DNA of 64,000 nucleotides from a virus (Duplodnaviria; Caudoviricetes): the IMG/VR virus record IMGVR_UViG_3300007770_000001; one strand, given 5' to 3'. Each line of letters opens with the position of its first letter. Position 1 is the first letter of the stretch. The translations under genes and the position numbers were made by a program. The notes below the pieces were generated by a model. The model searched no databases and had not been told where the DNA came from. It worked only from the letters and a program-made list of their open reading frames with translations. Below, piece after piece: positions 10,379 through 55,996 of this stretch.

Positions 10379-11172
10379 ACCAAGCGAGTCGGTCGGAGCT
10401 TCTCAAATCCTTGGAATGGTCGGGATCTCGCACTCTATGGAGCGTCGCTGGGGAGCCTCATACGGAGGTCTCCTGCTGTCCTCGTTGCCGAGGCTTTGAG
10501 ACAGTCCCCTCTCACTTCAAGGTGGGGGGCCCCCACTCCGGGTTCGCTACCGTGAATACACATCCGGACCATCTCGATGAGGTGGGGCACCAGGATGACT
10601 GTTCGTTGGCAGAGGCCATCAAGTCTCTGGAGACCGAACCTCAGATCTCCGAAGTCCTGACCCGCTCCTTCTGCGCCCTCACTGAGATGTGGGGCCGTCG
10701 CTACGACACTCCCTCAGATGATATCCCCGAGGTCTCCGAGGGAGAGCCCTTCGGTGCTCCTGTTGCGGTAGACGTGGGTCTTCTGGCAGAAGCCCAGACC
10801 CATCTGTTCGAGGTGGTCAAACACCTCCTCCCGGAGCTCTACGCGCAGATGACGAACGGAGGGGCTCCGGATGTTCCTCTTGCCAGGCCCCAAGAGAATC
10901 TGGTCGATTTGGACAAGCACCGGATCCAGACGGAGCTCGAGTTCCCCGACGAACAGGTCGCCTATGCCGAGTTCCTCTGGGGCCGCACCACCTTCGGGTA
11001 CAACCTGGCGATACGGGATCTGGAGCAGATGCGCAGAGGGAAGGATGACGGGTCTCTCCGGCCTCCGGAGACGTATCACGAGATCTTTCACCTGATCCGG
11101 AATCTCCGAGAGATGGCCTCCCACATCGCGCAGACCTACGGGTTGGAACCCATCCCAGAGGAGAAAGGCTGA
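10375..11172 (+). CDS. hypothetical protein
   Basis: ATGA overlap; 265 aa. Confidence 0.7.
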   Translation: MNQASRSELLKSLEWSGSRTLWSVAGEPHTEVSCCPRCRGFETVPSHFKVGGPHSGFATVNTHPDHLDEVGHQDDCSLAEAIKSLETEPQISEVLTRSFCALTEMWGRRYDTPSDDIPEVSEGEPFGAPVAVDVGLLAEAQTHLFEVVKHLLPELYAQMTNGGAPDVPLARPQENLVDLDKHRIQTELEFPDEQVAYAEFLWGRTTFGYNLAIRDLEQMRRGKDDGSLRPPETYHEIFHLIRNLREMASHIAQTYGLEPIPEEKG

Positions 11173-11756
11173 TGTACTCTACTTGGAAGGAGGGCCGCCT
11201 CACGAGGGGGGTCGTGACCCTCGATTGCTGCGGGGGGGTCTTGAACCACCTGACTGTGATCCTGGCCTACCATCCTGGAGATATCAGCGATAAGCCTGCC
11301 GTCATCCGAGAGGCTCCCGCAGGCCTGAGTTGGGGCTGGTCCGAGGATATTGCTCCTTTCCCGAAGGGCCATCCAGACCACCACAAGTCTCCGATGCGTG
11401 TCTGGCTGGATTCTCTCCCCGAGGAAGCCAAGAAGGAGACCATCTTCGAGCGCGCGACCCCGTATTGGAAGGCCCGCCCTGCGGTTGAGGTCAGTTCCCT
11501 CCTGTGGCGGAACAAGGAGCACTACAAGGAGCCCCTCCCTTCGGCGAAGTTCTGCCCTCACTGCGGAACCCCAGTCCCCGAGATACAACGTACCGACAAC
11601 CTCATAGGCCCTGTCTACAAGCCGTCCGCGGATGGGGACTACTGCGCGACCTGCGAGAGCCGAAGCGGATGTTGCTCATGTCTCCCCCCAACATTCCTCT
11701 GGGAGACAGTTCGTCCCGAGGTTACCCGCCAAACGGAGCCTTCTGATGGCACGTAA
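11172..11756 (+). CDS. hypothetical protein with C-terminal Zn-finger-like Cys motifs
   Basis: TGATG overlap; CPHC...CATC...CCSC. Confidence 0.65.
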   Translation: MYSTWKEGRLTRGVVTLDCCGGVLNHLTVILAYHPGDISDKPAVIREAPAGLSWGWSEDIAPFPKGHPDHHKSPMRVWLDSLPEEAKKETIFERATPYWKARPAVEVSSLLWRNKEHYKEPLPSAKFCPHCGTPVPEIQRTDNLIGPVYKPSADGDYCATCESRSGCCSCLPPTFLWETVRPEVTRQTEPSDGT

Positions 11757-11973
11757 CTTCAGCTTCCTTCCTGAGCACGGGGAAGGTGGACATATCGACT
11801 TGACTCTCCTGTCCCCCCTCGAGTACCTGCGGAACCGGGATGAGGAGGACCCCCAACCCCGGATGGCCCTGCTGACGGTACGGGGACGGGACAATGAGCT
11901 GACAGCAGTGGAGCTGGAAAAGCTCGGGCGGGCATGTTTCCGTTACGCCCGGCTTATCCGTGATGGGAGGTAG
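11746..11973 (+). CDS. hypothetical protein
   Basis: GGAG before ATG 11746 in the 11632 frame. Confidence 0.55.
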   Translation: MARNFSFLPEHGEGGHIDLTLLSPLEYLRNRDEEDPQPRMALLTVRGRDNELTAVELEKLGRACFRYARLIRDGR

Positions 11974-12041
11974 TTTCAGGGCTGGGGGAAAACCCCGACC
12001 TCTGGAGTGAAAACTCCCAAACTACTTTCGATCTGGAGTTT
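11969..12041 (+). other. candidate multi-stem intergenic RNA structure
   Basis: Closing stem 11969-76 with 12019-26 enclosing GGGG-GAAAA-CCCC and GGAGT-GAAA-ACTCC hairpins. Confidence 0.4.
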
Positions 12042-12085
12042 CCTTTCTGCTCTGTGGCGTTTACAATAGAAGTGCGGAGGTCCCT

Positions 12086-12265
12086 ATGTTGGTTTCTTCG
12101 TGCACGCCAACCTGGACAGAAAGACGGAACCTGAACCTGCTCTCGGAGCGGGAGAGCACCATCTACATCATGGGCCGCATTGCCCGTGGCGAGGATGTCC
12201 CCGCTTCGGTATGGGAGTTCCTGGTCCGGAAGAACCTGATCCAAGGTCCGGTGGCCAACGCCTGA
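12086..12265 (+). CDS. small hypothetical protein (59 aa)
   Basis: GGAGG SD; MLVSSCTPTWTERRNL... Confidence 0.55.
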   Translation: MLVSSCTPTWTERRNLNLLSERESTIYIMGRIARGEDVPASVWEFLVRKNLIQGPVANA

Positions 12266-12310
12266 CAATCCTGTGTCCTGTGCTGAATCCCCGTTCAGTT
12301 GGAGCATTCT

Positions 12311-12995
12311 ATGTCTCTCATCGTTGAGATCAGGGCTGCGGAAGGAGGAGAGGACGCCAAGCTCCTTGTCCTTCAGCAGTTGTCCGTGTACTCCAAGTTT
12401 GAGGCTCGGGGGTCCCTTTGACTTCACGTTGGAAGTTGTAGCTGAACGACCAGGCTACATTGCACTGAGGGTCACGGGGAAGGACGCACGGAGAGCCTTC
12501 CGCAACGAGGCTGGAGGCCACCGCTGGCAACGGGTTCCCCCGACGGAGAAGCGAGGGAGAGTCCACACGTCCACGATCACCGTGGCGGTGCTTCGAGAAC
12601 CCACTCCATCCCAGGTTCGGCTGGATCCCAAGGACCTGGATATCACGACCTGCCGTGGTTCCGGCAAGGGTGGGCAACACAAGAACGTGACGGACAGCGC
12701 TGTCCAGGTCAAACACAAGCCCTCTGGCATCATCGTACGGGCAGAGGCCGAGAGGTCTCAGAACCAGAATAAGGAGCTCGCCCTGGGCGTCCTTCGGGCC
12801 AAGCTCCAGGAAGTCCGTACAGAGGGCGAGAACACCCGTAGAAACGCTCGTAGAAGATCCCAGGTAGGCTGCGGGGCCCGCGGTGACAAGCGCCGTACAG
12901 TACGCCTACAGGCCGGCCAGGTCGTGGACCACATCACCGGGAGGAGGACCTCAGCGAAGTCCTATCTCAGGGGACAGCTGGAGAAGCTGTGGTAG
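12311..12995 (+). CDS. class-I peptide chain release factor (RF1-type PxT, GGQ, no domain 1), expressed via +1 frameshift; about 227 aa
   Basis: Frame 0 gives MSLIVEIRAAEGGEDAKLL...GSL* (RF domain-2 start); +1 frame gives ...NEAGGHRWQRVPPTEKRGRVHTS...GSGKGGQHKNVTDSAV...RSQNQNKELAL. Confidence 0.9.
12408..12422 (+). promoter_or_regulatory. prfB-type programmed +1 frameshift cassette
   Basis: GGGGG-TCC-CTT-TGA-C: internal SD, 3-nt spacer, in-frame CUU followed by UGA-C. Confidence 0.85.
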
Positions 12996-13563
12996 GGGGG
13001 ACAGCGCAGGTCAAGCACGTCTCCACACAGCCAGACTCTCCCTTGAAGAGCTTGGCATCGCAGGACTCAGCCCAGCAGCAGTTCTCCGAGGTTGGGTCCT
13101 GTCCACACGCAGCTTCCCATCCGAGACAGGAGGCCCAGGAGAGGTCAGGACACTGAGCCTCACAGTAAGCCTCGTTGTTCGTCTCCCGCGCGAGGGGAGG
13201 GAGTCCCACATAGCTCTCAGGCAGGAACGTGATGTTCGAGAAGTCCGGACGAGCAGTTCCCGGACTCTCCGCTCCGCCAGGTCCGTCGTTCGGAGGTCCG
13301 GGAGGGGTGCCTGAGCACACGCAGTTGGACTTGCAGTCGGTCTCGCAGTCCCCGTCGCAGAGGACCATGAAGCAGCACGCCGTATGATCTCCGGCGAGAC
13401 ACGCCACGTGGTAGCCTGCGCAGTCCCAGAACCCCAGGGAATCACACTCAGCTTTGCATCGAGAGTCGAGATTCGAGCAGTCCGGATTCCCAACGGAAGG
13501 GGTGGCGGGGGCCGGGGGCGCTGAGGCCGTCGTGTAGCACGCCAGGACAAGAGCAAGGATCAT
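12967..13563 (-). CDS. Cys-rich putative lipoprotein with two internal disulfide-type repeats
   Basis: MILALVLAC lipobox-like start; duplicated C-x3-C-x7-C-x6-C-x7/8-CC-x4-C pattern. Confidence 0.7.
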   Translation of the reverse strand: MILALVLACYTTASAPPAPATPSVGNPDCSNLDSRCKAECDSLGFWDCAGYHVACLAGDHTACCFMVLCDGDCETDCKSNCVCSGTPPGPPNDGPGGAESPGTARPDFSNITFLPESYVGLPPLARETNNEAYCEAQCPDLSWASCLGWEAACGQDPTSENCCWAESCDAKLFKGESGCVETCLTCAVPPTTASPAVP

Positions 13564-13594
13564 GAGATACCCCGGAGGTCCAAGATCCACCAAC

Positions 13595-14056
13595 CTACCC
13601 GAGCGGGGCGTTGGCCGCCCAGAGCTTCTCGAACTCTTCCTTGAAGGCCCGGACCACATAGCTGATGCGGATGATGACGAAGTTTTCCGCATTCCGCTCG
13701 GTGGCGCTCTTGGTGAAGTTGTAGGAACCTGTGAGTACAGCCTTGGGCGCGTTCCGACCGTCTCCGATCAGGAACTTGTTGTGCATGATCCCCTTCTGGT
13801 GATCCCTTCGCACGTCCACACCAGCTGCCTCGAGCTTCTCGTCGTCCGCGTATTTGTTCCCTGCCTGGGTCTTGTCCATAAGCACGCGGACGACGACTCC
13901 CCGCTGGTGTGCTCGGATGATCGCGTCCGCGATAGGGTCATGGGTCAGCGAGTAGATGGCCACGTCGCAGAAGGTATCACATCCGTCTATGAATCCGACC
14001 ACAACCTCGTCGGCGCCGCGATCTGGGCTGAAGTAAGTGCTGGCGTATCGTCCCAT
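13595..14056 (-). CDS. phospholipase D-family (Nuc-like) nuclease, single HKD
   Basis: YFSP, VAIYSLT, MHNKFLIGD, TGSYNFTKSA, NAEN. Confidence 0.9.
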   Translation of the reverse strand: MGRYASTYFSPDRGADEVVVGFIDGCDTFCDVAIYSLTHDPIADAIIRAHQRGVVVRVLMDKTQAGNKYADDEKLEAAGVDVRRDHQKGIMHNKFLIGDGRNAPKAVLTGSYNFTKSATERNAENFVIIRISYVVRAFKEEFEKLWAANAPLG

Positions 14057-14103
14057 GCGCCCCTCTCTGTATAGCCGAGGTAACTGTGGCATAGGAGAAA
14101 AAC

Positions 14104-14543
14104 ATGAGGATCCTTTTGGTTCGCCACGGTGAGTCCCTGGCCAACGTCGATCGTTCCGTCTACCTATCCACAGCGGACCATGCCGTGCCCCTGTCGGACC
14201 GCAGGTCACGGACGAGCATATCCAGGACCTCACCGACGGGGTCCGGAAGAAGTTCCGGGATCTTCTGTGCGAGAGGGAGCTCACGGAGTGGCTCAAGATC
14301 TACGAGAAAGATCTCACCCCGGATGAGCGTCTGGTGCAAGGGCACCACTACGTCTACGAGGCCCGGCTCGTAGACGACCAGGCTGTCCTTTGGGAGGTTG
14401 GCTTCGGAAGAGGGCATGTCACTCGGAGGGATTTCATTCGAAAATTCGACTTCGATCCTCTCGAAGTCCTCAAGGAGCGACTCCAGGCCAAGACGGACGC
14501 CGCGGATGCTCAAGACCTCTTCAAAGAGGTCGGACACCTCTGA
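14104..14543 (+). pseudogene. chimeric remnant: histidine phosphatase N-terminus joined out of frame to an unrelated 3' coding segment
   Basis: MRILLVRHGESLANVD...DHAVPLSDR (RHG motif) stops resembling the family near 14203; a different frame (about 14202-14543) is protein-like but has no start. Confidence 0.6.
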
Positions 14544-14935: not shown

Positions 14936-15031
14936 ATGGCCCAGATCGCCGACCAGATCGCCACTCGCCTCCTCGCGGCCTCCCGCGCCTACTACGGTGG
15001 CCGCGAGCCCTGTGGGCTTTCAGGATTCTGA
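14936..15031 (+). pseudogene. orphaned 5' fragment of NAD-dependent DNA ligase (31 aa)
   Basis: MAQIADQIATRLLAASRAYYGG parallels [22 protein letters not shown] at 16052; truncated where the endonuclease gene begins. Confidence 0.8.
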
Positions 15032-15964
15032 AGCGTTTTGCGCTTTCCTTCTTGCCCAACGTCTTTTTTGGGATTCGCTCATTTTCCTGCGGGTCTCGGC
15101 GGATGTTACTTTCCCCGTATGGGTTTTCCGGACAGCTTCAGAGACCTTATTCCTGAAGTCTGGATCTTCCCATTGAGATACCATCTTTGCTCTCGCCGCT
15201 TCTCTCCGGGTTCCGTCGTCCTGGGACCACGCTTCCAGAGAGCGTTGTCGAACCCTTTCACGAATCGTATTGCCACCTTTCTCCCACCGTTCCCGTTGGG
15301 CGGTTGACATCTTCTGCCGAGACTCCTCGGAGTGAGTCCGCCCTTCCCAGTATTTGTTGCCTTGGTGTGCCTCGCTGATCTTTCTACGGGTCTCGGCAGA
15401 CACGGTTTTCCCTCGGTGGGCTGCTCCAATCTTCTTTTTGGTTTCCGCTGTGTGCTTTTTACCTGTGGCTGCATCTGTTATCCTTCGGAGGGCGTCTGGG
15501 CTATGCACATGACCCCTCATCCGTTCTCTAATCTGCTCCACATGAGATTCTGACAGCTTCCTGCCCGACATCGCTCTGCTAATCTTGGCTCGGGTCTCCG
15601 GAGTGTGGGGAATCCCTATTCGGATTCGGCCCTTGGGGCATATATTGTATCCGGTGGTATGGGGTCTGAGGCGGTCTAACCATTTCTGTTCCGACTGCTC
15701 TACTCCTTCCGGAGAAACCTTTTCGAGGACACTCACTGAGAATGTCTCCTCCCCGTATTTTTCCCAGGCTCGTTGGAGCTTTTGGGAGTGATGGGACCCT
15801 CTCCTGAGACTCCGGAAATGTCCCATTAGACGAGTCCTGATATTGACAGATCCTCCGACATACACTTTTCCGTTCAGGGTGTTGCTGATCTGGTAGACTC
15901 CCGAGCATTTCCGAGGGTCTCCCCCTACATCCCGTATCGCAGCTTCAATTGTGGGCACGTCCAT
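15020..15964 (-). mobile_element. free-standing GIY-YIG homing endonuclease with NUMOD3 repeats
   Basis: SGVYQISNTLNGKVYVGGS...R...H; repeated HT/S-xET(R/K)xKIS NUMOD3 units; visibly more AT-rich than flanks. Confidence 0.9.
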
Positions 15965-32890: not shown

Positions 32891-35800
32891 ATGCTCAACC
32901 TGAAAGCCATCGTAGATCTTGTCGTCGGGACCGTCACCCGTGGGCGAGAGGCAGAGCGGGAGATCACACGGATGACTGGGGAGGCCACCGAAGAGGGGGT
33001 CATCCGCGGAATGACGGCCGGAACCAAGAAGGCCCAGGAGAAGCTCTACAAGACATACGCCCAGCTGGGCAAGGTCGGGATGACCGAGGCGGCCAAGACC
33101 CTTCGCTACGAGGTGGACAGGGCCAACAAGGACCAGCTGGAGACCCAGAAGAAGATCTCCGACATCCGGAAGAAGCTCAAGAAGACGGACAAAGAGGAGG
33201 AGAAGGAGATCCTCCGGATGCAGGAGGATAGCCTCAAGTTCCAGCTGGCGGCACAGCACGAGGCTCAAGAGAAGCTGATCGATCGAGCCATGGGCGCCAC
33301 CAAAGATCGCGTAGCTCTCATGGAAGCCGCCCAGAAGCGCATGGATCGGACCCAGGACCAGGTCTGGAAGGACCGTTCCGACGGGTTCCAGAAGAGCATC
33401 CAGAGCGCGCTGTCCATGGACAGGCTGGACCCGTCCAACATAGCAGAGGGGCTCATGAAGGGTCTCTCAGGAGTGATGGACGCCAAGGCTGGGAAGATGA
33501 TGGCCTCTGGCGCCGGAGGTACGGCAGCGGGAGCGGCTGGGATTGCCAAGCTGACGGCCGCTGCCGGAACCCTGGCCGCCGCTGCGGGAGGTCTCGCCGC
33601 CTTCTTGGCAGTCCTGGGAGCCGCCTATGGGCAGACCAAGGATCTGAACAAGGCTCTGATGGAGGGTGTTTCCGCCGCCGACATGTATGGGGCAGGGGCT
33701 GTCAGCCTGGGAGCAACCCTGGGTGATCTCCGGAAGGTGTCAATCGGCCTCGCCGGAGACTATCGGTTGACCAAGGAGGAGGTGCTCGGCGCCATCACAG
33801 CGTTCAATGAGGCGGGCGTCACCCTTGGTGAGATGAGAGGGATGGTCACTGAGACCACCATTGACATGGCCAAGTACAAGACGATCACGGAGATGGCCAT
33901 CCGGGCGACCCAAACTCTGGGTCTGTCCTTCTCCGATGTCGCGGACTTCACCAACAAGATGAACCGGGACCTGGGAGCCGGCCTGGATTCCGTCCAGGGG
34001 GCCTTCGGCATGATCGCCGAGGAAGCCGGCAAGGCGGGGATGAACACCAAGGACTTCTTCGCAGCCATCAACAACGCGACCTCAGGCATGGCCCTGTACA
34101 ACTTCCGTGTCGGGGATACGGTGGGGCTGTTCTCGGACCTGGTCAAGATCCTCGGCGAAGACTTGGCCAAGGAGAAGATCGGTCTCGAGGGAACGTTCCG
34201 TGGGATGGGAATGCAGGAGCGGTTCAAGAGCCAGATGCTGATGGGCCGGGGCCGGGCTTCCGGGATCGTTCGTGCGGATGCTGAGTCCCAGGGAGAAGCC
34301 TTCGCGGACAAGTTTGCAGGGAAGCTCTCCGGAGACCCCGCTTTCAAGGGGCTGTTCTCCGCGGACGGTCGGTCCATGGATATCGAGGCCCTCTCCAAGA
34401 TGACAGGCGAGGAGTTCCGCGCCGCTTATGCTTCTGCCCAGAAAGCTGATCCTGCTGCCGCACGTCAGTTGTTCTCTCTCCGGGGACTCGCCCAAGGAGC
34501 CACCGGTGGGGGCATGGCTGCTGCGGGAGCGCTCGGGCATCTTTCCAAGACAGGAGAGCTCGCGGCCCAGCTGGCCCAGGGAGCCGCGTTCCGAGGAGGA
34601 GGGGAGACCCCGCTTGCTGAGCTCACTGGCGTGAACCGGATGATGATGGAGGAGGTCACAGGACTGACTGGAGAAGCTTTCGACCAGCTGGCCCTCCTGG
34701 AGACGGGACTCCGAGCCGAATACGAGGCCAAGGGTGGGAAGGAAGTCCTGGGGGACTTCTACGATGCATTGGCCGCTGGGGAGCTCAGCGGAGGAGCAGA
34801 GCTTGAAGCCCTCGGGGAGCTGAAGTTCTCTACCATGGAACGGATCGCCAAGGAGCAGCTGGAGGAGACTCGTAGCTTCTCCCAGGAGCTCAGTAACGTC
34901 ATCGCCGGGCTCCTTGAGCAGATTGCCAGCGGCATGGAGATGCTGGTCGGGATCATGGGCGACGATGAGCATTCGAAGAAGATCGAGGCCCGCCGCGCCA
35001 GTGTCGGGGAGTCCCAGAGGATCGGAGACGAGATCGCTGTGCTGGACGAGAAGCTCTCCGAGCTCAAGCAGAAGCAGGTCACCTCTGCGGATGGGGAGGA
35101 GGTTGCTGCATTGGGGAAAGAAATCTCCCGCCTCCAGGGACAGCGTTCCGGTCTCTCCGCCCAGGGGGACGCCCAGTCCCGGTTCCAGAGGAACCTTTCC
35201 TTGGGGATGACAGCCCAAGAAGCGATGGAAGCTACGTTCTCCGATGAGCAGAAGTCCATGGTGGACTACGGAGAGAGCACCTACGCCACTCGCACCACGA
35301 AGCGTATGGGAGAGATGCATACGGAGACCTATGCAACGTCTTCCCCTGAGTTTGACAAAGATCGGATGACCCCAGAGAAGATCTCAGAGATGGCCTCCGG
35401 GATCACAGACGCAGAACAGGAGCAGAAGCTGCGCGACGAGGAACAGCTCAAGCTCCAAGAGAAGCAGCTCAAGGAGGAGAAGAAAGGGTTCGATGCTGTC
35501 GTTGAGAGTGTAGAGAACGCCCAGAAACGGGAGGCCCTGGCCGAGCTTGGGTCACAGTTCGGCTACAAGGCAGTCCAGACGGCCCACCAGACCGGGGACT
35601 GGACCTCGGTGGTGGCCAACGCCCGGAAGGGGGGTCTCACCATGGAAGAGAGCCAAGCCCTGGCCTTGGGTGGGGCAAGCACCGACCTTCTGTACAATCC
35701 CATGGCCAACGACTTCATCTACCGGGGAGACGGTCGGTCCGGAAACATCACGCCCATCAACAAGTCTGACGAGTTCTTCGGTGCGAAGCCGGGAGGTCCG

Positions 35801-35929
35801 ATTTCCCAGGGGATGGGGAACAAGAGCGTCACCATCAACATCAACGGAGGGGACATCAACAAGGTGAAGGAGGTGGTCACCAAAGTGCTCCTGGACACCG
35901 GCTACCCGAGCATGAAGTCCTATGGCTGA
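32891..35929 (+). CDS. tape measure protein
   Basis: 1012 aa, Ala/Gly-rich helical and coiled-coil, followed by baseplate genes. Confidence 0.8.
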   Translation: MLNLKAIVDLVVGTVTRGREAEREITRMTGEATEEGVIRGMTAGTKKAQEKLYKTYAQLGKVGMTEAAKTLRYEVDRANKDQLETQKKISDIRKKLKKTDKEEEKEILRMQEDSLKFQLAAQHEAQEKLIDRAMGATKDRVALMEAAQKRMDRTQDQVWKDRSDGFQKSIQSALSMDRLDPSNIAEGLMKGLSGVMDAKAGKMMASGAGGTAAGAAGIAKLTAAAGTLAAAAGGLAAFLAVLGAAYGQTKDLNKALMEGVSAADMYGAGAVSLGATLGDLRKVSIGLAGDYRLTKEEVLGAITAFNEAGVTLGEMRGMVTETTIDMAKYKTITEMAIRATQTLGLSFSDVADFTNKMNRDLGAGLDSVQGAFGMIAEEAGKAGMNTKDFFAAINNATSGMALYNFRVGDTVGLFSDLVKILGEDLAKEKIGLEGTFRGMGMQERFKSQMLMGRGRASGIVRADAESQGEAFADKFAGKLSGDPAFKGLFSADGRSMDIEALSKMTGEEFRAAYASAQKADPAAARQLFSLRGLAQGATGGGMAAAGALGHLSKTGELAAQLAQGAAFRGGGETPLAELTGVNRMMMEEVTGLTGEAFDQLALLETGLRAEYEAKGGKEVLGDFYDALAAGELSGGAELEALGELKFSTMERIAKEQLEETRSFSQELSNVIAGLLEQIASGMEMLVGIMGDDEHSKKIEARRASVGESQRIGDEIAVLDEKLSELKQKQVTSADGEEVAALGKEISRLQGQRSGLSAQGDAQSRFQRNLSLGMTAQEAMEATFSDEQKSMVDYGESTYATRTTKRMGEMHTETYATSSPEFDKDRMTPEKISEMASGITDAEQEQKLRDEEQLKLQEKQLKEEKKGFDAVVESVENAQKREALAELGSQFGYKAVQTAHQTGDWTSVVANARKGGLTMEESQALALGGASTDLLYNPMANDFIYRGDGRSGNITPINKSDEFFGAKPGGPISQGMGNKSVTININGGDINKVKEVVTKVLLDTGYPSMKSYG

Positions 35930-36527: not shown

Positions 36528-37591
36528 TGGCCATTGCAAGCCTCCGAGAGGACCTGATTGCCGATCGGTACGCGACCCTCCCTGTGGGGCCAGGGCTGGT
36601 GTATTCGTTCGAGACCCAGGCAGGGATCCCCGTAGACGCAGGGAACCCTCTCACCCGGGACCTGTCTCCATTCACGATCCGGATTGTAGTCCCGGATCTG
36701 GTCGCCGAAAACACAGGGATCGATGTAAACCTGATCGGCCGGGGAGGACAGTCTACCGACGAGTTCAACACAGCCGCGAACGCTGTTCGTTCCTCTTTCG
36801 GAATCTCTACGATCACCGGAGGGACAGGAGCCTTGTCTCAACTCGAGCGGATCGTGTCGGCAGGCCAAATTGTATCGGGAGCCACGAACACGGAGCGGGC
36901 TGTCTTCACTGATGCTCTGACCGCAGCCGATGTAGCCCGTCAGGTAGAGATCCTCCTGAACACACCGCCCCTGACGCTCTTCGTCAACCCGGCGAACATG
37001 TCCGTCAGCTACTCGACGGTCCAGCAGTTCTCGAATCGAACCCGCTGGGGATTCATGTTCGAGCGCTGGGGAGAGGGTCAGCCTGCGATCTCGTTCTCTG
37101 GATCCACCGGCGCGTTCATGGCGGGGGCGAACCCTGCCACAGCGATCCCAGGCCAAGCGGAAACGGGCTCAGCCAGCGGAACTCAGTTCGCATCGAAGCG
37201 GGACAGCGCCGCGTTCCAGAACTTCACCTCTCTGTACCACTTCTACAGGAACAACGGCTACATCTTCAATACGATAGAGGGGTCCGAAGCCCATCACATG
37301 GTAGGCGGCCTGGCCATTGACTACGACCAGTTCACCTACTTCGGCCACATCGAGAGGTTCTCCTACAGCTACCAGGAGGGGTCTCCTCATCGGATCGAGT
37401 GGTCCATGGAGTTCACCGTTAGCTTTATGTACGATCACGCGGAGAGGACTACAGTGGTGCAGCCGATGAGGGCCTTGGGGGAGACCCAGACCAACAGTGC
37501 AGACCCTGGGCTTGGCGCTGGTCTATCTTCCGGAGCCTCATCGGTAGATGAATCCCTGGCCCACCTGCCCATTGATCTCCTGGGGTTCTGA
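36527..37591 (+). CDS. second tube-initiator-like paralog
   Basis: LFVNPANM...RTRWGFMFERWGE...ISFSGSTG; similar to 35922. Confidence 0.6.
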   Translation: MAIASLREDLIADRYATLPVGPGLVYSFETQAGIPVDAGNPLTRDLSPFTIRIVVPDLVAENTGIDVNLIGRGGQSTDEFNTAANAVRSSFGISTITGGTGALSQLERIVSAGQIVSGATNTERAVFTDALTAADVARQVEILLNTPPLTLFVNPANMSVSYSTVQQFSNRTRWGFMFERWGEGQPAISFSGSTGAFMAGANPATAIPGQAETGSASGTQFASKRDSAAFQNFTSLYHFYRNNGYIFNTIEGSEAHHMVGGLAIDYDQFTYFGHIERFSYSYQEGSPHRIEWSMEFTVSFMYDHAERTTVVQPMRALGETQTNSADPGLGAGLSSGASSVDESLAHLPIDLLGF

Positions 37592-40500
37592 TGTCCTTGA
37601 GCAACCGCCCCTACATCGGGACCTGGCAGATGCGAGGCCAGACTTCGGTCAAGCACTCGCCCGATGCCATCGTCCTGATCAACGGCCACCAGGAGATGGC
37701 CACCTGTCCTACCTGCAACAAGGGTCTGGATCTCAACCGCTACATCACCAACATCTCGGTGGATGGGACCACCGATCCCGTTGCCTCCGCGAACATCTCC
37801 CTGAGCATCCCTCGCTATGACGCGAGTCTCTTCTCCTTCGATGGGAACCATGTCCTGAAGCCGGGATTGGAAGTCATTGTCTTCATGAAGGGATACTTCC
37901 CCATGAAGGGCTTCGCCAGCCTGGGGCAGGACCCCTCGGAGCTCGAAGGCTTCGACCCGGATGGAGTCCCCCTCTATCCCTACTACCAGGTGTTCAGAGG
38001 AGTCACGACCAACGTCTCCCATGGATTCAGCGGGGGCTTCTACACGGCGACTCTACAGTGCTCCAACCTCCTACACTTCTGGCAGAACCTCAAACTGTCC
38101 ACCAACGGTGCGGTGATGGGGAAGAGGCCGGCGGACTCCCAAGTCCAGCCTGATCTTCGGGGACACAAGTTCACCAGCGCCAACCCCTACGCCATCATCT
38201 ACACGCTGGTTCGGGTGGGGTTCGGGGCTGCCTATGGCGTCGAGTTCATGCTGGGGAAGCAAACCAGCATCTCGGCCAAGGACGGGGACAACCGCAAGTA
38301 CCAGTTCAAGCACGCCGCTGAGTGGTGGGAGAAACGTTGGACGGAGCACTCAGGCAGCCTCCGCATGTATGGGATTGACGGGAGGATCTTCAACGCCTTC
38401 GAGCAGGCGTACCTGGGGGCCTGGTACGACACCCGGGGAGAGTCCTCTGGAAGCTCTGTGCTCTTCCAGACTGCGCAAAGGATCCTGCAGACGGAGGGCC
38501 AGGACTACAATCCCCAGAGGCATCAGGAGTTCTTGGAGAAGGCCCAGGAGTTGGGATACGACCCCCTGGCTACTCGGGCTGCTGTGTACGATACATCAGG
38601 AGGGAACGGGACGTCCTTCGCGACCGAGGACGTTCTACGGATGCAGGCGTTCACTCTCGATGTGGGGCGTCTTGGGTCCATCAACATGTTCGAAACCGAG
38701 TACATGTCCAAGCTCGAGATCGTCGAGCGGGTCAAGTCTATCACAGGCTTCGAGTTCTACCAGGACGTTGATGGGGACCTCGTCTTCAAGCCCCCTCTGT
38801 ACAACATGGACACCCGAGACGACCCTGTCTACGTGATCGAGGACCGGGATCTGATCTCCATCAACCCTTCTGAGGGAGAGCCCGAGGCCACCATGGTCAA
38901 GGGGACAGGCTCCCACTTTGCCAATCTCTCCGGACACGGGATCGAAGGATGGCTGGGGGTCGGGGGTGTCTTCATCGACTACAAGCTGGTCGCTCAGTAC
39001 GGATACCGCGAGGAGACCTTCGAGTCGAACTACCTGAGCTCTCGCCAGGCTCTGTTCGTATCTGCGATCAACCGACTGGACATGGCCAACGTAGGAGTCA
39101 AGAGCGCCTCCATTACCATCCCTCTCCGCCCCGAGCTCCGCCCAGGCTTCCCTGTCTACGTCCGCTCCATGGACTGCTTCTACTACGTGAGGTCCTTCTC
39201 CCACAGCTACCAGGCCGGTGGGCAGTGCAACACCCAGATCAACGGAGTGGCCAAGAGGGCCAAGTGGCTTCCCCCGATGGAAACCCCAGGAGACGGTTCT
39301 CTTCCGGATGTCTCCCACGTTCGCCTGGACGCTCCTGGGGAGTTCCCTGCCCAGCCCATGATGGGATTCGACCAACATATGTCGGAGGACGCGGGGGATG
39401 CAGGACCCCCGCGCAACTACGGATTCCCCAACGTTGTCTTGGCATTGGACCCAGACAAGATCAACCTGGCCACTGTGGATCTGGCGAGCGGGGTCATCAC
39501 TGCGGAGGGGTACATCCAGATCGCCCTGACCTCAGGGATCCTGGAGCGCGGGGAGACCGACCAGATCTTCTATCTCAGGTCCTCCAATGAGGAGAAGATC
39601 GAGATACAGCTGTCCGAGATCGAGCAGCAGTGGACGGATGTCCAAGAAGCCCTCAAGGCAGGCACCTACCAACCGGATCCCAGCAACAACCTGGGATTGG
39701 TCCTGGCCGCAATCCAACGCCGGACTTCCATAGATGTCTCAGATTCCTCGAACCTGAACAACTACCTGGCGCTGCAGACTTCCTTGAAGGGCACTTTTGC
39801 TCCAGGCACCAGCGCCCAGGGCCGATACCGATACTTCTCGTGCTCACATCCGGACGCAGAGCATCAGGCGCCAGGGAACCTCTATGTTGATCACGAAACC
39901 TCTGAGCACTCTACGGTGGCAGGGGGAGTTCCTGATGAGGGCTTCACCACCTCTATCCGCGCACTGACCAATGCAGGGAACGGCAAGGGGATCGCTCTCG
40001 ATACAGAGCCCCGGCCTATCCAGAGAGGGATCAAGGTAGCGGCGCTCTCCCAGAAGGAGGACCCGGGAGACTACAGTTTCCAGACGGAGGTCATGGCAAC
40101 CTCCGATATCCGGTTCGTCACATTCGGCCCCCAGACGGTCAGGAAGCGGATCACGGTGTCTCGGACCAAGCCCGGTTGGAGCGCGGGGACCAACTTCGGC
40201 CTGTCCCCCTCCTCGACCAAGGATGCCTACACAGCCCTGCTGGAGTCCCGAGCGGTTCCTGATCCTGGCCTCACTATCGGAGAGAGGTTCGAGGACGAGT
40301 ACTTCCGAATCCTGGGAGAGATCCTTCAGTTCAGTCAGGACCTGGGTGTGGATTCCGCTTCCCAGGTTAGTGCGGCCCAGTCCAAGGTGTCAACCGTGGG
40401 TCGGTGTCTGGATAGCTATGCGAAGCAGCTTGCCGAAGGATCCGACGGAAGCCTGGTATCTGCGGTGTTCATCCGGAAGTCGGACCTGGACGCCGTTCGG

Positions 40501-41460
40501 TCCTTGGCGTCCTCCTTGTCTCAAGGGCTGTGGGCCTATACCCGCCAAGTTGTCAGCGCAGCGAATAAACTTTCACCCGAGGACTGGTCCGAGTTCATGG
40601 ATGCTCGGGAGAGCTTCATCCGGAACTACACAGACGGCGTTGTAGAGGTGTCTGAAGGGGAGCCGGGTGTCTTGGTATTCCGCCCAGACTCCTATGAAGA
40701 GATCAATGACTACACCCCGATCTTCCCTGTCTCCGACGCGGGAGGCTATGAGGTGTACGGGAACCTCCCATACGGTCGGGGAGTGGGGGTAGAAGCCTTC
40801 GCGTCCCTGATGGATAGCACTACCCAAGGGGACGATTCAGGAGACGCTACAACCACGTCTACGACCTCCACCACATGGGTCGGCGGGGTAGGCTCAAACG
40901 CCTCCGACCTCCAAGCTATCGAGAAGTTCATCATCCTTTTCCTGGCCGGAGAGGATCCCCAGACGATCTTTGGGAAGCTCTCGGCCACCGAGAGGGATGC
41001 TGTCCTGGCGGCATCCAATACCACGGAGGAGGCAATCACACGGGAGGCAGTTGAGAGCCTCCAGCACAACTCCACCAGCCAGAGAGCCCGTATCCGGAAC
41101 ACTCCAGTGACCAGCTTCTTCCGGGGAATGTCCCAGACAGGAGAGGTGGCTGCCGCCAACCTCGCAGATCTCTCGGTTACGGGAGACACCTGCGTCTGTA
41201 AGGGGGCTGACGCCGCGACTCTCCTCTCAGCTTTCTCGGAGGAGTTCATCGACCTCTTCGATGATCCTGTCCAGGGCTTCCTGGAGCAGCAGGCGGCTGG
41301 GGTCAGCGAGAGCCATCAGTTCTCCCGAGAGGCAATGGCGGGCTCTATTGTGGACAGCAGCAACGAGCAGCCTCTCGCCGACTTCTCCCGCGCAATCCAA
41401 GATTCCGTAGGGAACCTCACCGGAGGGTTGGCCTCCGCAACGGATGGGGATACCACATGA
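37591..41460 (+). CDS. baseplate hub-like protein (gp27 class) with long extension
   Basis: 1289 aa; FEFYQDVDGDLVFKPP, ITIPLRPELRPGFP, YYVRSFSH. Confidence 0.65.
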   Translation: MSLSNRPYIGTWQMRGQTSVKHSPDAIVLINGHQEMATCPTCNKGLDLNRYITNISVDGTTDPVASANISLSIPRYDASLFSFDGNHVLKPGLEVIVFMKGYFPMKGFASLGQDPSELEGFDPDGVPLYPYYQVFRGVTTNVSHGFSGGFYTATLQCSNLLHFWQNLKLSTNGAVMGKRPADSQVQPDLRGHKFTSANPYAIIYTLVRVGFGAAYGVEFMLGKQTSISAKDGDNRKYQFKHAAEWWEKRWTEHSGSLRMYGIDGRIFNAFEQAYLGAWYDTRGESSGSSVLFQTAQRILQTEGQDYNPQRHQEFLEKAQELGYDPLATRAAVYDTSGGNGTSFATEDVLRMQAFTLDVGRLGSINMFETEYMSKLEIVERVKSITGFEFYQDVDGDLVFKPPLYNMDTRDDPVYVIEDRDLISINPSEGEPEATMVKGTGSHFANLSGHGIEGWLGVGGVFIDYKLVAQYGYREETFESNYLSSRQALFVSAINRLDMANVGVKSASITIPLRPELRPGFPVYVRSMDCFYYVRSFSHSYQAGGQCNTQINGVAKRAKWLPPMETPGDGSLPDVSHVRLDAPGEFPAQPMMGFDQHMSEDAGDAGPPRNYGFPNVVLALDPDKINLATVDLASGVITAEGYIQIALTSGILERGETDQIFYLRSSNEEKIEIQLSEIEQQWTDVQEALKAGTYQPDPSNNLGLVLAAIQRRTSIDVSDSSNLNNYLALQTSLKGTFAPGTSAQGRYRYFSCSHPDAEHQAPGNLYVDHETSEHSTVAGGVPDEGFTTSIRALTNAGNGKGIALDTEPRPIQRGIKVAALSQKEDPGDYSFQTEVMATSDIRFVTFGPQTVRKRITVSRTKPGWSAGTNFGLSPSSTKDAYTALLESRAVPDPGLTIGERFEDEYFRILGEILQFSQDLGVDSASQVSAAQSKVSTVGRCLDSYAKQLAEGSDGSLVSAVFIRKSDLDAVRSLASSLSQGLWAYTRQVVSAANKLSPEDWSEFMDARESFIRNYTDGVVEVSEGEPGVLVFRPDSYEEINDYTPIFPVSDAGGYEVYGNLPYGRGVGVEAFASLMDSTTQGDDSGDATTTSTTSTTWVGGVGSNASDLQAIEKFIILFLAGEDPQTIFGKLSATERDAVLAASNTTEEAITREAVESLQHNSTSQRARIRNTPVTSFFRGMSQTGEVAAANLADLSVTGDTCVCKGADAATLLSAFSEEFIDLFDDPVQGFLEQQAAGVSESHQFSREAMAGSIVDSSNEQPLADFSRAIQDSVGNLTGGLASATDGDTT

Positions 41461-43868
41461 GCACCGCAGCCCTCAAGGAAAAGCTCCGCCCCCGCCAGCT
41501 TCGAAAGGACCGCGCAGGGGGCCAGCCCGGGGAGTACCCACTTCGGATCGCCAAGGTCACCGAGGTGGACTCTATCCAGCGGACGTTTTCCCTGTACATC
41601 CTCACAGGGAGTGGAGACACCTACGACAAGATGCAGATGTCCTTCCCCGGAGCAGGGGCTCGACACTTCCTCGGCGCCATCCCAGAGGTGAATGACCTCT
41701 GTGTGGTGGGATTCTCCCCTGCCGAGTCAGGGAGCTCAGCTGTCCCTTATGTGGTGGGATGGTTGGTCCCGGGAGCTTCGGCTGGGTACGACTGGTTGAT
41801 GACCTCTCCGACCAAGGAGGACGAGGTCTCCCTCACCCCAGCTATGCGAGAAGCCCTCACGGGAACATTCGGCCGGAGGCGCCACAAGCTCCGACACTTG
41901 GAGGCCGGGAACGTAGGGGCCTCCAGCTCTCAGGGATCTGATCTCATCCTTGACGAGGGGGTCCTCCTGGCCAACCGGAGAGGGAACGAGCTCCTCCTCA
42001 GGGATCAGGATCAAGCTCTCGTCTCCCGGTCCTTGCAGAGGTTCCATGCGGGAGCCGGGGTCCGCACCTATTCGGGAATGGTCCAAAGGGATAGCACTCT
42101 CCTTCCGACCCAGATGTTTGCTGATGACATCGACTGGACAGCGGGCAAGCAGATCGAATCCGACGGAACCGCCGTGGCGCCTGGAGATCTCCCAGAGACC
42201 GACAACCCCGGAGCACTCACCGCACACCCCGTATTTGAAACCAACCTGCAGATGGGGAACGTAGATCCCAACCAGGCACTGGTTCGTGGTCTGTTCATCG
42301 ACGAACACGGGATGATGTACGACGAATTGGTGCGTCCTTCGGCGACCTATGGGGGAAAGAACCTCTATCGGGTCTCCATGGATCCCAACGCTGACGGGAG
42401 CTACCCGAACGCTGCGTTGAGCGAGGATGCTGAGGTCTTCACCGAGGTCCGTTGGGAGGTCTCCCATACGGCAGACGGAACTCTCCCGGTTACTGAGCAG
42501 ACCGATGGGATCGACATCGATCGGCTCCTACCGAACGCTCCCACCGAGGGGACGGACGGGAGTGGGGATGTGAACCCCCTGAACCGATCCCCGAACGCTC
42601 CTATGGTTGAGGTCGTCATGGGAACGGCGATCGGGAACGATCCGATCAACGAGAGGTCCAGTTACGGCCGTCCGTTGGTCCCCGCCCTGTTCGACGAGAA
42701 CGGAAGATTCTCTCCAGGTCTCCACGCTGCGGGACCTACAACCCCGGTCTCGGACCACGCCGCCTTCCTGGTTCGGGTCCACAACCCCACTGACCCCAAG
42801 GCCCCTCCCGCCTTCATGGCGATCACCAAGGGCGGAGCATATCGATCCTACTTCCCGGGGTCTGGGTCCGAGAGCCACCAGGAGTTCTACCAGACGGGGA
42901 AGAGAATCCGCGTCGGGAGAAGCGCTGCTGGAGAGAGCTACGTCCTCGAGGGAACAGGAGGTGTCTCTGTCCGAGGAATCGGCGTGGGCCGCTCCGTGGA
43001 CAACATTGGTGTGGAGATGCGGGCAGAGGAGTCCGCTGTCTCTATCTTCGGAGGAGCCGCGACGACCTCAGGGGCAGCCTCTCCGACTTCCGACCCCAAT
43101 CTGACTCTGGCGGGCAACAGATACGCTGTCCTGATCGAGAGCGCCAAGTCTATGTTGCTCTCGGCAGTAGAGACGCTCAAGATCTCGGGCCAACGAGTGG
43201 AGCTCGATGAGATCGATACTCTCAGGGCCCGCGCGAACACCTCTATGGAGATCCTGTCCGGAGACACGATTGCTGTGTCCTCCAAGAAGCTGAACGTGAC
43301 CATCACAGGGAAGGCAGAGTTCACCTACGGAGGGCCTCTCGACTCCAAGCCCACCAACGGTCCCTCGCGGACGACCACGTTCACAGCCACCCCACTGACG
43401 GGAGGGACCGGCGGGGTCGTAGATCGCTTCGACTACGTGTTCGGCGGCCGGAAGTCGGTGTTCCGCGTCGGACGCCAGGATACAGTGATGAACGCAGGGT
43501 CGTTCAATGTCACCACCATGGCGCCAGCCCCAATCACGGTAGGCCAGGGTTCCGGAGTCCATCTCTCCACAGGACTTCCGGGATTGAAGAACAAGCTGGA
43601 CCTGGATGTCCTCGGAGCAGCATTGGTGGCCGGAGCGGGGTCCGTGAAGGTACAGGCGACCAAGGGGTCCGCCTCATTGAAGGGGAGTGTGAGCGCCGTG
43701 GTCCAGGGTGGGATATCAGCAACGATCCGTGCGTCCTTTGTCAAGGTGAACACACCTACTCCCTTCACAGGAGGAGTCCTCACTGACGGCTGCCTGAGCC
43801 CCATTACAGGACGTTCGTACGCGCTGTCCGGAGGCCTGGGAGTCGCTACCTTCCGAGTCTCCAACTGA
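41457..43868 (+). CDS. baseplate spike-like protein (gp5/VgrG OB fold plus beta-helix)
   Basis: IAKVTEVD...GAIPEVNDLCVVGF; C-terminal beta-strand repeats. Confidence 0.65.
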   Translation: MSTAALKEKLRPRQLRKDRAGGQPGEYPLRIAKVTEVDSIQRTFSLYILTGSGDTYDKMQMSFPGAGARHFLGAIPEVNDLCVVGFSPAESGSSAVPYVVGWLVPGASAGYDWLMTSPTKEDEVSLTPAMREALTGTFGRRRHKLRHLEAGNVGASSSQGSDLILDEGVLLANRRGNELLLRDQDQALVSRSLQRFHAGAGVRTYSGMVQRDSTLLPTQMFADDIDWTAGKQIESDGTAVAPGDLPETDNPGALTAHPVFETNLQMGNVDPNQALVRGLFIDEHGMMYDELVRPSATYGGKNLYRVSMDPNADGSYPNAALSEDAEVFTEVRWEVSHTADGTLPVTEQTDGIDIDRLLPNAPTEGTDGSGDVNPLNRSPNAPMVEVVMGTAIGNDPINERSSYGRPLVPALFDENGRFSPGLHAAGPTTPVSDHAAFLVRVHNPTDPKAPPAFMAITKGGAYRSYFPGSGSESHQEFYQTGKRIRVGRSAAGESYVLEGTGGVSVRGIGVGRSVDNIGVEMRAEESAVSIFGGAATTSGAASPTSDPNLTLAGNRYAVLIESAKSMLLSAVETLKISGQRVELDEIDTLRARANTSMEILSGDTIAVSSKKLNVTITGKAEFTYGGPLDSKPTNGPSRTTTFTATPLTGGTGGVVDRFDYVFGGRKSVFRVGRQDTVMNAGSFNVTTMAPAPITVGQGSGVHLSTGLPGLKNKLDLDVLGAALVAGAGSVKVQATKGSASLKGSVSAVVQGGISATIRASFVKVNTPTPFTGGVLTDGCLSPITGRSYALSGGLGVATFRVSN

Positions 43869-44445: not shown

Positions 44446-47400
44446 GTGGGCTTCAATCTCTCTGGGTACGTGCTCCGCCCGGCGCGCGTAGCGACTGGGA
44501 ACGCTTCTTCCACAGGGGAGGCGACCTCAGGAGTCAGCCGGGATCATCTCTCTCCCGCGGAGATGTTGGCAGCGGGATACGAGATCCCGGCTCCCCGCGA
44601 CGTAGAGCCCTATGCCGACATGTACAGGGCAGCTGTCCTCCTGAGAGGAGGCGGAACGGACGAATACCTGGTGTGGGCAGCCACCTCTGGATCCCTGTCT
44701 ACAGTGGACTCGGATGCGTTCAGAATCTCGGGAGATCCCACCTACGTCCAACCGGCCGAAGGATCCCTGACCGTCGGGACCTACACAGACGGGACCGCTA
44801 CCTTCTACGTGAGGGATGAAAACGGACGGGACCTGTCCTCCGTGACCGGGATGACTCTCCTCCGGGGCGACACCTTGGGGCAGGTGGTCGCGGCTTTCGA
44901 TCCGGGGCAGGATCCCCTCATCGGGAAGGTGGTCATTGACGCCGCCACTCTCTCTTCGATGGGGGGAGGGTTCTCGGTAGGCAGAGGGGACCAAATCCTC
45001 CTCGTCTCGTACAGGCTCTCAGGCCCTACCTTCTGGTGGTCTCGCAACGATTCCCAGGCGACACGATTCGGGTGGGATGGCAGCAAGGGGAGGTGGGTTC
45101 CGTTCCAAGGCACCACTCCCCAGGATCTCGGGGAGGTGGGTTCGAAGGACTCTTATGAGCTCTCCCCACCCCCGTCCCGCTTCTCCGTCGGAGACACCCT
45201 TCCCGGAGCCTCTGGTTCTCCGGATAGCTTCTCCCTGGTTCGTGGGGGTCTGTTCCCCGACTCGACCGCGATACCCCTGGATATCCTGGTCGTCGCCGAC
45301 CCCGATACCGAAGGGGACTATCCTGCAGTGGGCTCGGGATACGACGCTGTGGTCGGAGTCACCAACGGGGTCCTTCTCCTCAACACCACATACACCACCG
45401 CCAACGTAGGCCTCACCCTCTGGTACAACCCCGAGAGCTTCCGCCCTGGGGACGATGGGGATCTCGGGGAGCTCGCCGGCCTTCCCACGGACTCAACTCT
45501 GGGATATCCGGTCCTCTCTCCAGTCCCTGGACCCACCGAGCGACCCTTCATTCGCCTTGGGAGTCGCAGGTACCTGGCGCCTGTGGCCTACGATACAGAC
45601 GCGGACCTTCCTGGGGATCCCTCCTCCGTCCCTGAAGGAGAGGTCTGGTGGTCTCGTGCAACTGGGAAGGTGGTGTTCTCCGAGACGGACATCAAGAAGA
45701 CCCAGCCGGGAGAGACCGAATACGATATCGCATATCTGGGAGCTCACGCTTTCTACGATGGGGTTTCCCTCTCCACCCAGCCTGTTCCGCTCCAGAGCCC
45801 TGTTCCTCTGGTGGACGAGAACGGGAATGAGCTGGTCGGAGAGGATACTGGAGGCTCTGGTGTTCCTGGGTCTGGGGATCTCTTCATCCAGAGGAGTGCC
45901 TCTATGCCCCCTCCAGGAGCCTCCGGAGTCCTCTATGTTCCTGATAGGACCGGAGAGAGCCCGGATTCCTCAACCGCAGCGAACGCTCGCCCCAACGGCA
46001 GCGGACTGGTCCGTCAGCTTGAGGGCGTCGGAGATACCTTCATCTTTGCAGGCTCTCGTGCTCTGGAGACCCTCGAGGTTGTCGAGTACGAGGAGGATAT
46101 CCCCACCCTCAAGATTCGAGTCAAGAAGACCGAGGCAGTGACCTCTCTGGAGCCCGCACCCTCCCAGCCGCCAGGGTTCGCTGCGACCTCCCGAGTCCAG
46201 ATGAAGCGAAGAGGCATCAAGGGAGAGGGTCTCTACTTCGCGCAGGCCCAGGTCACTCCAGCCACGTACTCGGACGAGGCGCGGCTCTATTCTCGGAACT
46301 CGGAGCCCTACACTCTCGTGGGGACAGAGGAGCTTCGCTTCGCCGTAGACGGCACCCCCTACACATGGACGGCCTCTGGAAGCGGAGAGTTCACCGCAGC
46401 TCAGATCGCAACGGAACTCAACACGGTCATCACCGGGACGGGCCAGGCAGGGGTCATCCGAGGTCGCGTCTTCATCGAGGCCGGAACTCCTTCTTCGGGG
46501 CGTGTGGAGATCGGCTGGAACACCGACGCCGATGACCTCTCCGGACACACCGTCCTGGGATTCCTTCCCGGCTGGAGGGTGGATGCCTCAGGGGACACCT
46601 TCCGTTGGCAGCCCGACAACGGATCAAGCCTCGGCCTGTACCGGAGTCCTGAGAATCTGAGCCGGGAGAATCTGACCGCAGACATCCGAGCGACAGGCTC
46701 CTACACTGGGAAGGTGTTCACCGATAACGTCCAGGCCAGCCCGTTCGTTCATGTCAACAACCCTCCCTTGGTGGACATCCCCGGCTTCGATGAGGACGTA
46801 CACTTCCAGATGAGCCTTGGGCTGAACCTGGTCCGTCTGTCCAACTATGGTCTCCGTCAAAGGGTTGGCCTCAAGTACGATCTGGAGAACAACCGGGTCA
46901 TCTGGGCCGAGTTCGGAGAGACCCCCGCCACAACTGTCCTGTCCCCAACGGATACGCTTCAGCTGGACCACACGGGGGTCATCGAGGAAACAGTAGACAG
47001 CGAAGCCATGGATCCCACTCGGGCAGGCTTCGGTCTGTACCTCAAGCGGCCTGGTCTCATCAGCTATTCAGAACTGGGACAGGGTTCCGAGTTTCTCCTC
47101 CCTGGAGAGGGAGCCCCCGGGCAAGCTGTTCTGATCTCCCCCGAAGGAGGTTCCGTTTACTCCGGGGGTGGCGGAACCTTCTCATCGGGGGTCTTCTCGA
47201 ACCCTGTCCTGAGCCCCGAGTCAACCCAGAACGCGATCCTCCAGGGGAATCTCCTGAGCGCCGTTTCGGTGGGTGACAGACTCCATGTCATCAACGGATC
47301 CGGGGCCGGTCTCTACACAGTCACTGGCGCCAACCTGGTCGGGGGGATCGCTGAGTTCACTGTCTCCCCTACACCTGCTGATGAGACAGGACTCTCGTGG

Positions 47401-55759: not shown

Positions 55760-55996
55760 ATGACTCCAGAGGAAGCCCGGAGAAGGCTCCGAGAGGCGGG
55801 GATCCCCGAGGGGTGGTCTCCCAGCACCGATGGGTTGGTTGAGGGTCTCCTCTTGGGGAGACAACGAGCTCTCCTTACCTCCCTGGAAGGGTTGGTTGAG
55901 AAGCAGATCGAGCAGGACCAGAAGCAGGTGTCAGAGCTACACTCAGCCCTACAGAAGCTGAAGGCAGGCGGGGGAAAGGCGGCCAAGAATGGCTGA
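55760..55996 (+). CDS. hypothetical coiled-coil protein
   Basis: GGGAG SD. Confidence 0.6.
   Translation: MTPEEARRRLREAGIPEGWSPSTDGLVEGLLLGRQRALLTSLEGLVEKQIEQDQKQVSELHSALQKLKAGGGKAAKNG

Follow-up and report, generated by a model that had tools for sequence, protein, structure and literature searches.

Introduction

The +1 frameshift at CUU-UGA is a textbook case of translational autoregulation, and to our knowledge frameshifting at CUU-UGA has been regarded as a peculiarity of RF2. The autoregulatory +1 frameshift of bacterial prfB, the gene for RF2, was reportedly worked out by Craigen and Caskey in 1986 and by Baranov et al. in 2002. The codon-recognition tripeptide of RF1 is PxT, and its counterpart in RF2 is SPF. 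Shorter proteins are also known. PrfH (RF-H) is a release-factor homolog without domain 1 that is coupled to RtcB and is devoid of the RF1 codon-recognition motifs, and ArfB, of about 140 residues, has only a GGQ domain and a basic C-terminal tail.

The prfB consensus has been given as AGGGGG-N3-CTT-TGA-C (Prince et al. 2025, PMC12421855). In that survey, which spanned over 12,000 genomes, no prfA (RF1) gene had a programmed shift, and UAG was absent from all 8,164 prfB motifs (PMC12421855). In viruses, the eRF1-like termination factor genes of Mimivirus and Megavirus reportedly need recoding (Jeudy et al. 2012, PMC3521657), and RF1 and RF2 genes have been reported from huge and stop-recoded phages (PMC7162821; 10.1101/2021.08.26.457843).

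Here we describe a release-factor gene in a 64-kb stretch of DNA from a tailed phage; this whole stretch, at its full length, is called the window below. With a probability of about 0.78, positions 12311-12995 form one gene, whose product would be a 227-residue class-I factor of the RF1 type without domain 1, made by way of a programmed +1 frameshift. Comparison with its relatives gives strong support to the claim that this phage gene depends on a prfB-style +1 shift, the site of which is not the one used in prfB.

Results

The gene begins with ATG 12311, which sits 6 nt downstream of a Shine-Dalgarno (SD) sequence, GGAG, read at 12301..12304 on the plus strand. Thirty-six codons follow in frame 0 (12311..12418, plus strand). 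Their translation, MSLIVEIRAAEGGEDAK...ARGSL, corresponds to the first strand and helix of domain 2 (EIRAAEGGEDAK...) and matches positions 101-131 of the PCRF model and 106-135 of the prfA model. Residues E11, G12, G13 and D15 of this part are invariant in the family alignment A1. Codon 37 is a TGA (12419-12421) in the local string GGGGG-TCC-CTT-TGA-C. The string is made up of an internal SD-like stimulator, GGGGG (12408..12412, plus strand), placed 3 nt 5' of CTT with TCC as the spacer; a slippery CTT-T (12416..12419, plus strand), which is the P-site Leu codon and the first base of the stop; and the in-frame TGA followed by C (12419..12422, plus strand), a weak UGA-C context. An earlier note on this DNA had listed the ATG with its upstream GGAG, the domain 2 start and the codon-37 stop within this string, and each element lies where the note had put it. 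The pattern GGGG-N4-CTTTGAC occurs once in the 64-kb window, against 0.06 occurrences expected by chance.

When T12419 is skipped, the next codon is GAC at 12420 and the frame stays open to the TAG at 12993-12995, with the junction reading ...FEARGSL-DFTLEVV... and GSLDFTLEVVAER as the predicted tryptic peptide across it. The +1-frame segment (12420..12995, plus strand; 191 codons and the TAG) contains the remainder of domain 2, the PPT codon-recognition loop (codons at 12537-12545), the GGQ domain (GGQ codons at 12669-12677) and domain 4. It matches PCRF positions 153-194, the RF-1 domain (E 1.3e-27) and prfA model positions 157-334. A +1 slip would thus reach the frame with the rest of the factor, including GGQ, as had been proposed. 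The two gene parts match consecutive stretches of the same Pfam and NCBIfam models (PCRF and then RF-1; the prfA model). The +1 frame is open already from 12273, and no SD was found in the sequence before the GTG at 12273. RNA structure in the 82 nt 3' of the internal stop was nothing unusual (z = -0.11), and a promoter and terminator scan around the gene gave no signal above chance. A reading of UGA as a sense codon in frame 0 was rejected, as the next TGA comes 8 codons on and it is the +1 frame that shows the homology. Given a T run of just 3, transcriptional slippage was rejected as well.

The joined product (P0003) has 227 residues and is an RF1-type factor that begins at the start of domain 2, with PPT at residues 76-78 and an intact GGQ at residues 120-122. 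It is not a canonical full-length RF1, which has about 360 residues and is thus longer by some 130. RF1 models gave its best scores; against the prfA equivalog (NF001859/TIGR00019) it reached 182 bits, with a cut-off of 400, and the match begins at model position 106. Scores fall far under the full-length RF1 cut-offs because domain 1 is absent and the protein starts at domain 2. A profile of the family (A1, 38 members) compared with solved structures gave about 250 bits for RF1, about 155 for RF2 and 90 for PrfH. The profile covers residues 87-316 of Thermotoga RF1 and is free of gaps at the junction, where the Leu of CTT aligns with the Trp of R-K-G-W. The match to ArfB (NF006718; 35 bits, cut-off 100) was confined to the GGQ segment.

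Natural unbroken homologs align with residues 1-227 over the full length at 59-62% identity. A structure model was made of one of them, P0036, which is 62% identical to the joined protein. The model had a pLDDT of 85, and a compact RF1 (1rq0) came first in the fold search (TM 0.82, rmsd 3.1), with PrfH at rank 50. In this model, the junction maps to the domain-2 loop that links the first helix to the second strand, and the segment 5' of it supplies a strand and a helix to the domain-2 fold. Since the junction lies inside this fold, the 36-residue part is no unit of its own.

The Gln and Thr that flank the PPT loop are kept; in RF1, we take these positions to be the ones that read the third stop base. 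Judging from these motifs, the stops read by the product would be UAA and UAG, not UGA. A product with RF1-type motifs should therefore not replace RF2 at UGA, and the logic of the device would be cross-regulation rather than autoregulation. One split member of the family, from a 485-kb phage (LR745208.1; L001:1392-2049), is without the PxT loop, with RVQRTSNGRIH versus RWQRVPPTEKRGRVH in relatives, and its stop-codon recognition may therefore differ.

A single-base frame break in a metagenomic assembly invites the question of whether the DNA is correct, and an assembly indel was what the earlier note had wanted checked in the reads. Positions 11800-13400 were found with neither substitution nor indel in Logan contigs of four runs from two marine/seawater studies, at a depth of 10-38x, in samples that may include the window's own source and in contigs that can hide minority variants. 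As the four per-run assemblies are identical, an assembly indel is very unlikely.

Relatives of the gene were gathered from IMG/VR (31 loci), from GenBank phages and from one genome per prokaryote species (32 loci). Thirty-one relatives, from phage contigs, MAGs and three cultured bacteria, need a +1 shift; they are 37-70% identical to the window gene. CTT stands immediately 5' of the internal stop in all 31, whereas it accounts for 14% of the Leu codons elsewhere in the same split genes and for 9.7% in the genes of the window. The site falls in the window's alignment column in 27 of the 31. An SD-like run lies 0-5 nt upstream in 23/31 (at 2-4 nt in 21 of these), and the other eight have no recognisable run; C directly follows the internal stop in 22/31. 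The SD-like run is usually encoded by the conserved R-R/x-G codons of the family, CGG AGG GGT, which read CGG GGG in the window.

The nearest relative, L003, is 70% identical and shares its gene order with the window. At identical residues, the fraction of identical codons between the two is 0.90 in codons 25-36 and 0.45 gene-wide. A second peak of codon identity, 0.89, was seen at codons 205-216 (window 12924-12960), near the 3' end of the gene; a 241-residue minus-strand ORF (12967-13692) starts just downstream of this second peak and overlaps the last 29 nt of the gene. The split gene exists as real DNA, its two parts make up a single RF1-like fold unit, and selection has kept the cassette. 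Conservation across homologs, the other check that had been called for, thus came out in favour of the cassette. The note had also held that continuous homologs would speak against a shift. The split relatives all keep the CTT-stop, and about 10% of close relatives are indeed unbroken (12 of the best 120 database entries, and also L020, L034 and L035); some lineages can therefore do without the shift.

Among the best 120 database proteins, those closest to the C-terminal part, 108 do not have the N-terminal motif in their frame. About 75 of the 120 are +1-frame calls that run through the junction, with F-D/E in 51 (TGA), F-S in 22 (TAG) and F-N in 2 (TAA); these counts were corrected by hand and inferred from the protein sequences, with DNA confirmation for TGA and TAA only. 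A further 32 begin downstream of the junction and one more is ambiguous. The N-terminal extensions of the proteins called in the +1 frame are unrelated strings of low complexity.

In the tree, the short family is a single clade, separate from the sampled canonical RF1 sequences (support 99/92). At the DNA level, the internal stop is TGA in 25 of the 31 split genes and TAG in six, and a CTT-TAA, confirmed in DNA, was found in L067, beyond the 31. The TAG variants are scattered over the tree, and near-identical proteins differ: L038 and L041 have TGA, and L039 has TAG.

The position of the cassette varies as well. Three cultured betaproteobacteria, Thiobacillus denitrificans DSM 12475 (L054:3001-3670), Achromobacter anxifer LMG 26857 (L055:3001-3691) and Novimethylophilus kurashikiensis La2-4 (L056:2953-3673), have split family members in which a cassette CGG-GGY-YAY-CTT-TGA-C sits 13-14 columns further downstream in the alignment than the usual site. 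From its sequence and position, this cassette looks like one of independent origin. In the first of these genomes, the release-factor gene sits within an array of 26 tRNA genes. A third position is used in L029:2992-3661, a contig of 21% GC, where the required +1 shift would fall at CTT-TAG-C in family column 73, with no SD-like run upstream of it. L029 is nested within relatives in which a TGA stands in frame one codon earlier. Single-frame relatives with one or two in-frame TGA codons, mostly of low GC, are L009, L012-L014, L016, L021, L027, L028, L030-L033, L040 and L043. Their TGA codons occupy columns 55, 59, 64, 68 and 72, at or beside the three frameshift sites (columns 55, 68/69 and 73); at column 55, the main site, canonical RF1 has a Trp. 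This class is similar to the RF1 genes described from TGA-recoded phages (10.1101/2021.08.26.457843).

The earlier note had left it open whether the cassette was transplanted or convergent. Because the SD-like run comes from the family's own R-R/x-G codons, and because two lineages have cassettes at other codons of domain 2, repeated origin in place is favoured and a transplant is unlikely. The coding origin of the run suggests that pre-adapted sequence was turned into the cassette where it stood.

The window bears the marks of a large phage, with giant ORFs that have no database match, a homing endonuclease and a PLD-like nuclease. The PLD-like nuclease gene (PF13091; 13595-14296, minus strand) is 72% identical to its L003 counterpart and, like the GIY-YIG/NUMOD3 homing endonuclease gene (15020-15964, minus strand), lies downstream of the release-factor gene. 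Five very long plus-strand ORFs, of 1012 (32891-35929), 1289 (37591-41460), 803 (41457-43868), 3631 (44446-55341) and 840 residues (55989-58511), had no PHROG match. For most of the neighbour genes, PHROGs and Pfam gave no match, and megablast of positions 11000-14500 against GenBank phages gave none. The runs that hold the stretch are marine, and the protein call of the window is present on a contig of up to 228 kb. The coding density of the window is about 0.84-0.91 with the standard code. By crude gene calls and a codon-usage model, its genes stop at TGA in 40 cases, at TAG in 13-17 and at TAA in 4-6. As TGA ends most of the genes, UGA is a genuine and dominant stop in this phage, which is not recoded. 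No tRNA gene was found in the 64-kb window, and there is therefore no local suppressor tRNA.

In many relatives, the release-factor gene lies within tRNA arrays or beside tmRNA genes. Two loci, L016 and L043, have a tRNA with the anticodon CUA (an amber suppressor, called tRNA-Pyl by ARAGORN; L016:4538-4610 and L043:4548-4620) and a tmRNA gene, both at most 3 kb from the release-factor gene; in L006 and L020, too, this gene is flanked by tmRNA genes. Chromosomal copies occur in Myxococcota, including the finished genome of Minicystis rosea DSM 24000 (CP016211.1; L066:3898-4567). There the string is GGG-CTT-TGA-C, the annotation splits the locus into two overlapping genes, one of 37 and one of 188 residues, and no obvious phage genes were seen among its neighbours.

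Discussion

How would the two parts of the gene be joined? In the mechanism that we propose, the ribosome would decode 36 codons and reach the point where CUU, bound by peptidyl-tRNA-Leu, fills the P site and UGA-C the A site, with the GGGGG located 3 nt upstream paired to the anti-SD of 16S rRNA. If RF2 terminates, the 36-residue peptide would be released. If termination by RF2 is slow, the tRNA would re-pair from CUU to UUU, GAC would enter the A site, and the remainder of the factor would be made; the slower the termination at UGA, the more full-length factor would result. We infer the slippage and its dependence on RF2 from the established mechanism of prfB, and the codon specificity and activity of the product from its sequence motifs. 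A stop-dependent shift competes with the cognate release factor, and therefore its output should rise as RF2 termination at UGA-C slows. The dependence on UGA matters because UGA ends about two thirds of the genes of this phage.

The device would couple the supply of an RF1-type factor to the state of RF2-dependent termination, and would not be self-regulation; in the UAG variants, the loop could be truly autoregulatory. The earlier note took the factor to be made only when RF2 is limiting, which would follow from the known prfB mechanism. Its reading of a prfB-style +1 shift outside the prfB position is borne out by the CTT-stop in 31/31 split relatives, whereas prfB-like autoregulation would not fit a factor that is RF1-type by its PPT and its scores (250 versus 155 bits). 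Since UAG and UAA replace UGA in relatives, sensing specific to RF2 cannot be the purpose of the whole family. In a phage whose main stop is UGA, an RF1-type factor is not the obvious answer to a shortage of RF2. As a speculation, RF1-type activity might cover UAA and UAG while the many UGA stops of the phage saturate RF2.

The main functional rival accepts that the shift is real and required and takes it as a fixed attenuator, which would keep a potentially harmful extra factor at a low and roughly constant level, with no sensing role for the identity of the stop. The interchange of stops within the family would be expected from such a device (25 TGA and 6 TAG in the 31 split genes, with CTT-TAA in L067), as would that among the near-identical proteins L038, L039 and L041, with TGA, TAG and TGA, and overexpression of a release factor reduces the fitness of Bacillus subtilis (PMC12421855). 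Nevertheless, we regard it as unlikely. A +1 shift at a stop is always in kinetic competition with the cognate release factor and so cannot escape some dependence on the level of that factor; 22/31 retain the weak C after the stop; and a plain weak initiation site would suffice for low expression and would spare the cost of truncated peptides.

Far less probable are the two explanations in which no shift takes place. The locus could in principle give two products, a 36-residue peptide and a C-terminal protein begun in the +1 frame, for example at GTG 12273 or at the start used for P0004. The +1 frame is indeed open from 12273 and many database entries are called in this way, with the N-terminal motif out of frame or absent in 108 of the best 120. 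Upstream of the junction, however, the conserved residues are in frame 0 and not in the +1 frame (EIRAAEGGEDAK; E11, G12, G13, D15), and in the P0036 model this segment belongs to the domain-2 fold as strand and helix; the +1-frame extensions of the called proteins, by comparison, are unrelated and of low complexity, and GTG 12273 has no SD. These observations leave the two-product reading very little room. An error of assembly or sequencing, or a decaying pseudogene, is slightly less credible still and is already close to refuted. Metagenome assemblies often show single-base frame breaks as artefacts, and gene callers call the locus as a truncated gene (P0004, 198 residues), but the same DNA came from four separate per-run assemblies of two studies, the break recurs in the same column in 27 genes, each time with CTT and a stop, conservation at the protein level is maintained in both gene parts, and the break is also present in the finished Minicystis rosea chromosome.

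With the programmed +1 shift as the preferred reading of the window gene, a wider proposal can be made for the family, which we advance tentatively and at somewhat less than even odds. Synthesis of the factor would be tied throughout to failed termination at an internal stop: UGA would report on RF2, UAG would make the first autoregulatory loop of an RF1-type factor, and UAA would report on both. In TGA-recoded phages, UGA codons for Trp at or beside the same columns would allow the factor to be made only once UGA is read through. The cassettes would have arisen independently at at least three codons of domain 2.

We found no published description of such a frameshift in the prfB survey (PMC12421855), the GeneTack survey, the huge-phage paper (PMC7162821), the stop-recoding preprint (10.1101/2021.08.26.457843), a review of release-factor evolution or full-text literature searches; this coverage is incomplete, and absence from it is no proof. 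Here, phages and a few cultivable bacteria carry the prfB device in the gene of an RF1-type factor; it sits at another position, and its stop is UGA, UAG or UAA. The natural variants in the family could serve to test how a frameshift sensor gets its specificity from the stop. The family likely represents convergent evolution, and if the origins are indeed independent and at least three, it would be the clearest known convergence of a frameshift sensor. It also provides a clue to the control of termination by large phages during infection. For annotation, the consequence is immediate, as 108 of the best 120 entries appear to be mis-called, like the two split genes of Minicystis rosea.

Among known systems, prfB is the closest. 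Both have the four cis elements with the same spacing (the SD-like run, a 3-nt spacer, CTT-T, and UGA followed by C), both are genes of class-I release factors, and in both the +1 frame holds the functional bulk of the protein. Unlike the product of prfB, the window protein is RF1-type and without domain 1. The prfB site is at codon 26, in domain 1, whereas that of the window is at codon 36-37, in domain 2, near RF1 residue 140; the note's distinction between the two sites was therefore right, the prfA model position being about 140. The window product is predicted not to read the UGA of its own cassette, so that the device would not be autoregulation, the relatives also use UAG and UAA, and the cassette of the family appears to have arisen at three different codons.

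The other comparisons are more distant. The RF1 and RF2 of huge and recoded phages are likewise release factors of large phages, but the papers on them make no mention of a frameshift (PMC7162821; 10.1101/2021.08.26.457843), the window phage uses TGA as its main stop and is not recoded, and its factor is about 130 residues below canonical RF1. PrfH resembles the window factor in the absence of domain 1 and in the retention of domains 2-4 with GGQ; the window protein, however, scored only 80 bits against PrfH (TIGR03072, cut-off 166.65) and keeps the RF1 codon-recognition motifs, and a Pfam scan of six neighbours in the window found no RtcB domain. In Mimivirus and Megavirus, a virus-encoded termination factor also reportedly depends for its synthesis on recoding at a stop codon, but the factor is a eukaryote-type eRF1, the host belongs to another domain of life, and the signals are others. 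By its signals, then, the frameshift of the window family is to be placed with that of prfB in kind, and appears to have arisen separately from it. The mechanism is of the known prfB kind, while the protein it serves, its place in the gene, the stops it uses and the logic of the regulation are all different.
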